A stretch of DNA of 64,000 nucleotides from Eledone cirrhosa. Taxonomy: Eukaryota. Position numbers and translations under genes: made by a program. Shown here one piece after another: positions 57,658 through 59,613 of the stretch. The DNA lies in contig OZ024741.1 in the NCBI GenBank assembly GCA_964016885.1, positions 353,462,001 through 353,526,000 on the forward strand, in the 5' to 3' direction. The notes beneath the pieces are model-generated. The model saw only the letters and a list, made by a program, of their open reading frames with translations, was not told the DNA's origin and did no database searches. The number at the start of each line of letters is the position of its first letter. Position 1 is the stretch's first letter.

Positions 57658-58328
57658 TTCTAGAGAGTGTGTTTAAAATGTCAAAAAGAGATGTCTCCTT
57701 GTGATATATGTATAGCTAGTTATAGTAAAGGATAAATAAAGAGGAAGGAGGAAAAAACAACGTGAAGTTTATACTGCCTAAAAGAAAACAACAGATATAA
57801 CAGATATACTAAGTACACATATGTGTATATATATATATATATATATATATATATATATATATATATATATATATATATATATTTATTTTTATATATATAT
57901 ATGTATATATTTATTTTTATATATAAATATATATATATACACACACACATATACATATATATATATATATATATATATATATATATATATATATATATAC
58001 ATATATATATATATATATATATACATATATATATATATATATATATATATATATATATATATATATATATATATATATATATATATATATACATTTAGAA
58101 ACACACAGATACATGCGGACACACACATATATACATGAATGCATCCGCACCCAACTGTGAGTTAAGGGTGCCAACTTCACCGATGTTGCTCAATGAATGA
58201 CTGGGACAGACCAATTCAGTTTGAACCAGACTGAACCAGTATCAGAGTTAAAAATACATTATGAAGAGAGAAGAAACATTTAGATATAATTAGTAATAAA
58301 ATGTATCATACCTAAACTGTTCCTAAAT

Positions 58329-58416
58329 TCCTCGACTACGTAGTTTCGTGGCATAAACAAAAACAATATATCAAAGATATAGAGTCCTTGCGAGGTCTGC
58401 CGACTTATCAAGAGGA
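58329..58416 (-). ncRNA. Type I hammerhead motif, U3-A8 core (left arm)
   Basis: Reverse complement of 59236-59323. Confidence 0.75.
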
Positions 58417-59235
58417 TACCTCATTTTACTAGTCTCAAGAACGCGTCTACACGACGTGAGAAAGAATCCCAAAAGGCGGAGGGGGAGATAGTCACGCGAT
58501 ATAACGGTCGAGAAACAGAGCTAAGCCTCTTATAACCACGAAAAAAATACCACGGAGGCGGAGGGGGTATTCATATCGAGGCCGTAGAAGAGGTAGTGAA
58601 GAAGGCGAGAAGTATGAGTAATGGAAGCTTTCCAGTTGTCCCCACACCTCAAAGATTGCTCGACCAGAGGGAGTTATTAATACATTTAGAAACACACAGA
58701 TACATGCGGACACACACATATATACATGAATGCATCCGCACCCAATTAGGTATGATACATTTTATTACTAATTATATCTAAATGTTTCTTCTCTCTTCAT
58801 AATGTATTTTTAACTCTGATACTGGTTCAGTCTGGTTCAAACTGAATTGGTCTGTCCCAGTCATTCATTGAGCAACATCGGTGAAGTTGGCTCCCTTAAC
58901 TCACAGTTGGGTGCGGATGCATTCATGTATATATGTGTGTGTCCGCATGTATCTGTGTGTTTCTAAATGTATTAATAACTCCCTCTGGTCGAGCAATCTT
59001 TGAGGTGTGGGGACAACTGGAAAGCTTCCATTACTCATACTTCTCGCCTTCTTCACTACCTCTTCTACGGCCTCGATATGAATACCCCCTCCGCCTCCGT
59101 GGTATTTTTTTCGTGGTTATAAGAGGCTTAGCTCTGTTTCTCGACCGTTATATCGCGTGACTATCTCCCCCTCCGCCTTTTGGGATTCTTTCTCACGTCG
59201 TGTAGACGCGTTCTTGAGACTAGTAAAATGAGGTA

Positions 59236-59323
59236 TCCTCTTGATAAGTCGGCAGACCTCGCAAGGACTCTATATCTTTGATATATTGTTTTTGTTTATG
59301 CCACGAAACTACGTAGTCGAGGA
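59236..59323 (+). ncRNA. Type I hammerhead motif, U3-A8 core, long stem II
   Basis: tcctc-TTGATAA-gtcggca...tgccac-GAAA-ctacgtag-TC-gagga; GUC site. Confidence 0.78.
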
Positions 59324-59613
59324 ATTTAGGAACAGTTTAGGTATGATACATTTTATTACTAATTATATCTAAATGTTTCTTCTCTCTTCATAATGTATAT
59401 ATATATATATATATATATATATATATATGTATATATATATATATATATGTATATATATATATATATATATATATATATATATATATATATATATGTATAT
59501 ATATATATATATATATATGTATATATATATATATATATGTATATATATATATATATATATGTTTATGTATATATATATATATATATGTATATATATATAT
59601 ATATATATATATA

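Follow-up and report, generated by a model that had tools for sequence, protein, structure and literature searches.

We analyzed a 64,000-nucleotide (nt) stretch of the Eledone cirrhosa genome (assembly GCA_964016885.1, contig OZ024741.1, positions 353,462,001 to 353,526,000, forward strand; hereafter the window), which contains a young insertion of a non-coding 591-nt repeat that bears a hammerhead ribozyme motif. The insertion belongs to a dispersed, large and recently active family of retrozymes without long terminal repeats (non-LTR retrozymes). We consider it likely (probability about 0.65) that this family was spread by Penelope-like elements (PLEs) through rolling-circle twin priming on an edited RNA circle. 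Two properties of the family carry this reading: the pairing of two different fixed ends in its inverted copies, and A>G changes that occupy every lap (i.e., every passage through the unit) of both arms.

An inverted retrozyme with two fixed ends

The element sits between two (AT)n runs (window positions 57815 to 58088 and 59399 to 59612) and consists of two head-to-head arms built from one 591-nt unit, whose reference phases 1 to 591 correspond to 58746 to 59336 on the plus strand (42% GC). The left arm (58089 to 58745, minus strand) measures 657 nt or 1.11 units, runs from phase 162 to phase 227 and bears a long, tailed 3' end; the right arm (58746 to 59398, plus strand) measures 653 nt or 1.10 units, runs from phase 1 to phase 62 and bears a short 3' end. 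Both arms are truncated at their 5' ends, meet bluntly at 58745/58746 and differ by one base (phase 147). The short fixed end at phase ~62 (59392 to 59398, plus strand) and the long fixed end at phase ~227 (58089 to 58095, minus strand) run directly into (AT)n and are the putative priming sites A and B. Between these sites lie the 165 nt of the "tail" (phases 63 to 227; 58089 to 58253, minus strand), which is present at one end only. An earlier note on this DNA had described two nearly identical inverted arms of greater than unit length with one hammerhead per unit and no credible open reading frame (ORF), and our mapping bears this out; its end point for the right arm, 59395, falls inside a TA ambiguity at the end that we place at 59398. 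Our own motif scan of the plus strand found one type I hammerhead per unit, in the right arm at 59236 to 59323 (predicted cut 59318/59319, plus strand) and in the left arm at 58329 to 58416 (predicted cut 58334/58333, minus strand). The motif in the right arm comprises stem I, a U3-A8 core at 59241 to 59247, stem II with a long insertion, and a palindromic stem III; Rfam did not report it in the unit, neither at its gathering score nor at E<=10. The longest ATG-initiated ORF on the closed unit has 75 codons (86 from stop to stop), and tandem hammerhead units devoid of coding capacity agree with the retrozyme-like nature proposed earlier.

The 3.0-Gb genome contains 942 candidate regions for the whole unit, 1,851 exact matches to the short-end junction, 138 to the window's allele of the long-end junction, and 7,619 to a 22-nt ribozyme motif. 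We mapped 138 loci onto the unit, a small and biased sample among thousands: 38 were chosen by whole-unit score, 80 come from the first 100 of the listed short-end matches, which all lie on a single contig, and 20 were drawn from the long-end matches. Two old, diverged copies (L146, L195) were left out of most variant tests and L062 out of one analysis; duplicated insertions in L075 and L190 were left out from the rare-allele lap counts onward. A subfamily of ~80% identity to the unit keeps both fixed ends and the hammerhead motif across its ~20% divergence.

The outer (3') ends of the arms lie at phase ~62 or ~227, each running into (AT)n, and one end of each kind was found in 80 of 85 inverted insertions (2 of the 80 being duplicated insertions), in line with the earlier proposal that both target ends were primed. 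Among the remaining five, four have an eroded end and one was scored as pairing like with like; this last proved to be an old diverged copy split by the aligner, which leaves no true like-with-like pair among the 85. In a set chosen without regard to ends, all 22 inverted insertions pair a long with a short end (0.5^22 = 2e-7). Both kinds of end were also present, by hand count, in 16 of 21 inverted loci of the ~80%-identical subfamily, a set found with the tail as query; the other five have an eroded end. (AT)n flanks both outer ends in 75 of 81 pairs, and flank strings of at least 20 nt are common to both sides in 14 of 81, compared with 1.7 in shuffles; these shared strings may reflect target duplication or a compound microsatellite. 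This pairing is the "tail" rule of PLEs, with a tail of 165 nt. Inverted, 5'-truncated copies with one tailed end in an AT-rich target, the layout that marks PLE-type insertions, were thus found, and no LTR layout was seen among the mapped loci.

The inner (5') ends are scattered over the unit with some departure from uniformity (chi-square p=5e-5; Kolmogorov-Smirnov p=0.34 when restricted to long arms), and arms reach up to 7.2 laps. At the head-to-head junctions, microhomology of at least 2 nt occurs in 15 of the 44 clean junctions among 74 examined, against an expectation of 15% (p=0.002). Arms cross the predicted cut site 356 times, and no indel was listed there. A link between inner ends and the cut was considered and rejected, only 2 of 219 inner ends falling within 3 nt of it. 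The 18-nt offset of the right arm from the cut site, to which the earlier note had drawn attention, is real; since inner ends are scattered, we attribute it to chance. That note had taken the differently permuted arms as the signature of a circular template. With 3' ends confined to two positions, one of each per insertion, and inner ends that are truncations, the permutation is not supported as such a signature, and length beyond one unit does not by itself separate a circle from a linear multimer. A circular template is nevertheless likely, on the strength of the variants described below. The mapping that had been suggested as a check for permuted end points gave fixed outer ends along with scattered inner ones. 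Fixed ends had been named as an argument for an ordinary pseudo-LTR (pLTR) if attached to a coding PLE body; no such body flanked by the unit was encountered at any of the loci examined, and the single association with PLE coding sequence is a fusion in the middle of an ORF (L164).

Variants shared by all laps and the predicted fold

We found 39 lap-fixed haplotypes among 78 multi-lap loci, with one haplotype accounting for 24 of the 78. Rare alleles at sites covered by at least three laps were present in all laps in 18 cases, in some in 12, and in one in 93; with coverage of at least four laps, 45 were single, 7 partial and 8 all-lap. When changes were polarized on a tree rooted with the old (~80%-identical) subfamily, the 104 lap-fixed changes, read on the ribozyme strand, were dominated by A>G (53, or 51%), compared with 8 T>C, 10 C>T and 13 G>A. 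This exceeds the share of A>G among fold-tolerated sites (p=4e-10). Tolerance of the fold was rejected as the sole cause of the excess, as C>T is equally tolerated yet rare. In the lap-fixed A>G class a 5' G is avoided and a 3' G favored (permutation p=0.0017); ADAR enzymes have the same preferences. Single-lap changes, in contrast, show no strand bias, with 15 A>G and 32 T>C (4.4 and 5.8 per 10,000; p=0.45). Where at least three laps cover the site, A>G alleles occupy all laps in 79 cases, some in 4 and one in 6. The arms of individual insertions have 152 alleles in common and are discordant over several laps at three, which supports the earlier view that both were copied from the same template, with one template haplotype in nearly every case. 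At L142, a private haplotype with 10 lap-fixed differences, including 7 A>G, fills about 8 laps; one of its alleles occurs seven times in the genome, always at L142 and in both arms.

These data suggest that the lap-fixed A>G changes are marks of adenosine-to-inosine (A-to-I) editing in an ADAR-like sequence context. Since A>G occupies every lap and single-lap changes show no such bias, the edits would have preceded multimerization. For a change at the RNA stage that recurs in every lap of both arms, the simplest route is one monomeric circle that is re-read, and a pattern present in all laps would be expected if a single monomer were read again and again. Transcription-linked DNA mutation is another source of strand bias; it would also bias the single-lap class, which is unbiased. 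Template jumping among different monomers is disfavored as well, common alleles over at least three laps being uniform in 90 of 100 cases. At single loci we noted an allele that alternates between laps (L092) and an A site occupied by G in three laps and by T in another (L065).

Folded as a circle, the plus strand reaches -172 kcal/mol, compared with -134+/-7 for 60 shuffles, none of which was as low, whereas the minus strand reaches -128.5 kcal/mol; a strong fold is thus predicted for the plus strand only. Two laps of the old subfamily likewise fold below all of 30 shuffles. Predicted pairs are broken by 11 of 77 lap-fixed variants compared with 73 of 169 single-lap ones, and this sparing persists when A>G is left aside (p=0.007), in a comparison that is partly circular as the fold was predicted on a major haplotype. 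The ribozyme is closed off in 64 of 64 lap folds; the identity of the closing helix is not robust. Lap-fixed variants are not significantly depleted in the ribozyme (3/78, p=0.16). A helix that would splint the ligation site to priming site A appeared in 52 of 64 laps, but only one of four laps from the old subfamily forms it, and a different partner is favored in the alignment fold; we do not rely on this helix. Among contigs of four runs of unrecorded kind, run X2 yielded a self-closing contig of 621 nt with a period of 591, as tandem DNA would also do. Runs X2 and X6, which are coded as two other organisms, contain contigs of low depth that differ from the unit by only a few changes; these could be relatives, contamination or transfer.

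Several observations weigh against an edited monomer circle copied by a PLE. The circle, its cleavage and its editing are all deduced from genomic DNA. The hammerhead is part of the minimum free energy fold in 0 of 64 laps, its fold when taken alone is unremarkable (z=0.16), and two-sided changes occur at only 4 of 167 consensus pairs. A perfect monomer circle predicts none of the 12 rare alleles that occupy some but not all laps. Five of these occur once per arm (L053, two at L060, L064 and L156), which for some insertions suggests that gene conversion, re-reading of a lesion or a multimeric template was involved. The three discordances between arms are equally unexpected. Two of three tested "private" alleles were also found elsewhere (19 matches at 10 places and 7 at 4). 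The first, unpolarized context test revealed no ADAR preference, the context signal per site is weak (5' G, p=0.086; 3' G, p=0.041), homoplasy of A>G per site is not significant (p=0.067), and A>G events at recurrent sites are not independent. Furthermore, none of the 79 PLE loci sampled from more than 10,000 GIY-YIG candidates is a helper that shares sequence with the unit.

Penelope-like elements, a proposed route and its alternatives

Coding PLEs with reverse transcriptase (RT), a zinc-finger-like linker and a GIY-YIG domain are present in the genome and in the window; they show the same inverted pairing of one long with one short end, and some retain intact ORFs. Judged by their linker, they are probably Neptune- or Nematis-like. 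The flanks of the 79 PLE loci (30+20+29) showed similarity to the unit only as separate insertions in their (AT)n runs. One PLE family (L258/L263/L267) has the U3-A8 core and the 80-nt spacing from cut to short end found in the unit, without a clear sequence match to it; with few families sampled, this likeness may be due to chance. The tail of L267 is 64 nt long. A tblastn search with P0001 of 167 family-locus records gave matches at five loci, none in pLTR position, and no relative of P0001 with a solved structure was found. At L164 (1609 to 3745), a retrozyme arm continues, in sense orientation, into the middle of an ORF of another PLE family, with 5 nt of microhomology at the point of fusion. 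This fusion could be a template switch or a deletion, since the (AT)n ends of that PLE family, which has its own, different pLTR, also attract separate insertions.

The window also contains other elements of this kind. A 5'-truncated PLE lies between inverted pLTRs at 42648 to 46669 of the window, with an ORF for RT, zinc-finger-like linker and GIY-YIG at 44067 to 46211 (minus strand); it carries a U3-A8 hammerhead of its own, one of its ends has a tail of ~38 nt, and its sequence is unrelated to the 591-nt unit. The inverted hammerhead elements at 30728 to 31348 and 48662 to 50252 belong to two related families; each element has a short end and, with a tail of about 90 nt, a long one, both in (AT)n. 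Additional hammerhead motif matches lie at 35627 and 61860. A third hammerhead family (L228-L255) with U3-A8 core and palindromic stem III does not match the unit. Elsewhere in the window we noted mobile-element fragments at 12692 to 13657 (RT), 21874 to 24834 (endonuclease and RT, LINE-like) and 55536 to 57164 (weak hAT transposase match), and a constant strong strand skew over positions 1 to 10000 (GC about +0.39, AT about -0.23) that is probably due to a repeat array.

The route that we propose would begin with transcription of tandem genomic laps. As in known retrozymes, hammerheads, probably acting as dimers, would release monomers that are ligated into circles, and the folded circle would then be A-to-I edited, as the strand bias and context of A>G suggest. 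A PLE endonuclease would cut (AT)n, and the two target 3' ends would prime at phases ~62 and ~227, one each, as the paired ends of the insertions attest. Each cDNA, 0.05-7 laps in the copies observed, would roll through the ligation point to a variable stop. In the copies, the truncated 5' ends of the two arms meet head to head, bluntly or through short microhomology. Single-arm copies would arise when only one end is extended or when an arm is lost later. The element would accordingly work like a passenger of PLEs, and by its structure, with cleavage and circular RNA predicted, it is a retrozyme.

Alternatively, RT might copy linear read-through multimer transcripts of genomic arrays, with circles absent or incidental. 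PLE extension in vitro did not need hammerhead cleavage (PMC11167929), the haplotype found at 24 of the 78 multi-lap loci looks as if derived from a master locus, and five single-lap alleles are shared by the arms, those of L053, L064 and L156 fitting a multimer read from two priming laps. Linear multimers, however, offer no route by which a new A>G could reach all laps, predict lap-by-lap editing, which is absent, and imply arrays that could only shorten, yet the private haplotype of L142 extends over its many laps. The two once-per-arm alleles of L060 stand in reversed order between the arms, which such a template also fails to explain. We regard this explanation as unlikely overall, and linear multimers may have served as template for a minority of insertions. 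It is quite improbable that the circle replicates from RNA to RNA like a viroid and that uniform multimeric plus strands are then copied once by PLE RT. All-lap A>G alleles are predicted by this scheme, too, L142 combines its many differences with a tested allele that has no other genomic carrier, and RNA-to-RNA replication is stated for a plant retrozyme (PMC9695139). The minus strand, on the other hand, contains neither a hammerhead core motif nor an unusual fold, editing of minus strands would leave an excess of T>C that is not seen, and missing carriers may sit on the other haplotype or in other individuals. In a bolder version, a viroid-like circle gathers ADAR edits over RNA-only generations in the animal germline, and a dimeric Penelope-like RT, rolling from two fixed sites of a single circle at which both ends of an (AT)n break are primed, has left thousands of snapshots of it in the genome; this is likewise distinctly unlikely.

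Were monomers to insert first, and arrays to grow and homogenize later in the DNA by unequal crossover and gene conversion, one could understand L094 and L154, which resemble later duplications of a lap, and arm-shared transversions, which could be conversions within the palindrome. DNA-level events would not, however, give a strand-specific A>G bias; the lap distribution of rare alleles at four or more laps is bimodal, and dispersed near-identical insertions have two multimeric arms with fixed ends, all of which makes this scheme highly improbable. That the unit is the pLTR of an autonomous PLE, or the locus a misassembly, we find scarcely credible. The architecture does resemble that of inverted PLE copies, L164 joins one arm to a PLE ORF, our view is drawn from about 140 loci of thousands, and the junction in the window is known from the assembly alone. 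Against this, the sampled PLE loci lack unit-like flanks apart from separate insertions, the fusion at L164 lies in mid-ORF and involves a family with a different pLTR, and the same layout recurs with distinct junctions on many chromosome-scale contigs. Rolling-circle twin priming by a PLE on an edited circle remains our preferred reading.

Comparison with known systems

In L1 twin priming, as proposed here for the retrozyme, both target ends prime on one RNA, which gives an inversion. Each L1 arm, however, derives from a different part of the RNA, and the position of the second priming site varies, whereas the two retrozyme arms span the same laps and start from sites that are both fixed.

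Animal non-LTR retrozymes are expressed as circles (PMC7229834). Reverse transcription of such circles into tandem cDNA by PLEs has been proposed, not shown (PMC7229834, Cervera and de la Pena 2020), and a preprint ties retrozymes to pLTRs and suggests later local amplification in a satellite model (Li et al., 10.64898/2026.07.22.740005). The family described here has non-coding tandem units, a type I hammerhead in each, and a GC content under 45% in common with them. Its unit of 591 nt, in contrast, exceeds the published examples of about 220-390 nt, its copies, scattered through the genome as inverted pairs in (AT)n, have two fixed ends, and no counterpart of its lap-fixed A>G bias was found in the texts consulted. 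Its ribozyme is predicted to be blocked by self-pairing, a trait that the retrozyme paper ascribes to plant retrozymes and viroids. A search of mostly open-access main texts revealed no description of lap-fixed editing marks in retrozymes or of an obligate pairing of their ends; how new these two features are may depend on the model figure of PMC7229834 and on the tail mapping in PMC11167929.

Inverted copies of PLEs carry a tail at one end, which is called optional in print (PMC3846280, PMC8557442, PMC11167929), PLE RT initiates internally in vitro at two positions, one on either side of the tail (PMC11167929), and U3-A8 and a palindromic helix III are known from PLE hammerheads (PMC4209133). 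Endonuclease-positive PLEs and the retrozyme family resemble each other in 5'-truncated copies arranged head to head, a single tailed end, two internal start sites for RT, AT-rich or microsatellite targets, and a hammerhead with palindromic stem III. They differ in that the retrozyme has no ORF and its repeat is the whole element, that its tail is 165 nt long compared with 30-40 nt in print, and that the pairing of long with short ends, where the published tail is optional, is near-obligate in its inverted copies. Chlamys elements such as MRC1 (PMC8557442) are also non-autonomous PLE derivatives with multicopy head-to-tail insertions; they match a helper at the 3' end, where none was found for our unit in the loci sampled, and the Chlamys clade is said to lack canonical hammerheads.

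Our findings provide genomic evidence for circle-templated reverse transcription by PLEs, so far hypothetical, in a known kind of element, the retrozyme. The editing-like changes act as a barcode that marks every lap of both arms without an excess in single laps. The near-obligate pairing of long with short ends constrains the integration step of PLEs, in that the two RT starts known from in vitro work appear to serve one target end each. With its defined substrate of 591 nt and its thousands of natural products, the family lends itself to the study of circle templating and end pairing.
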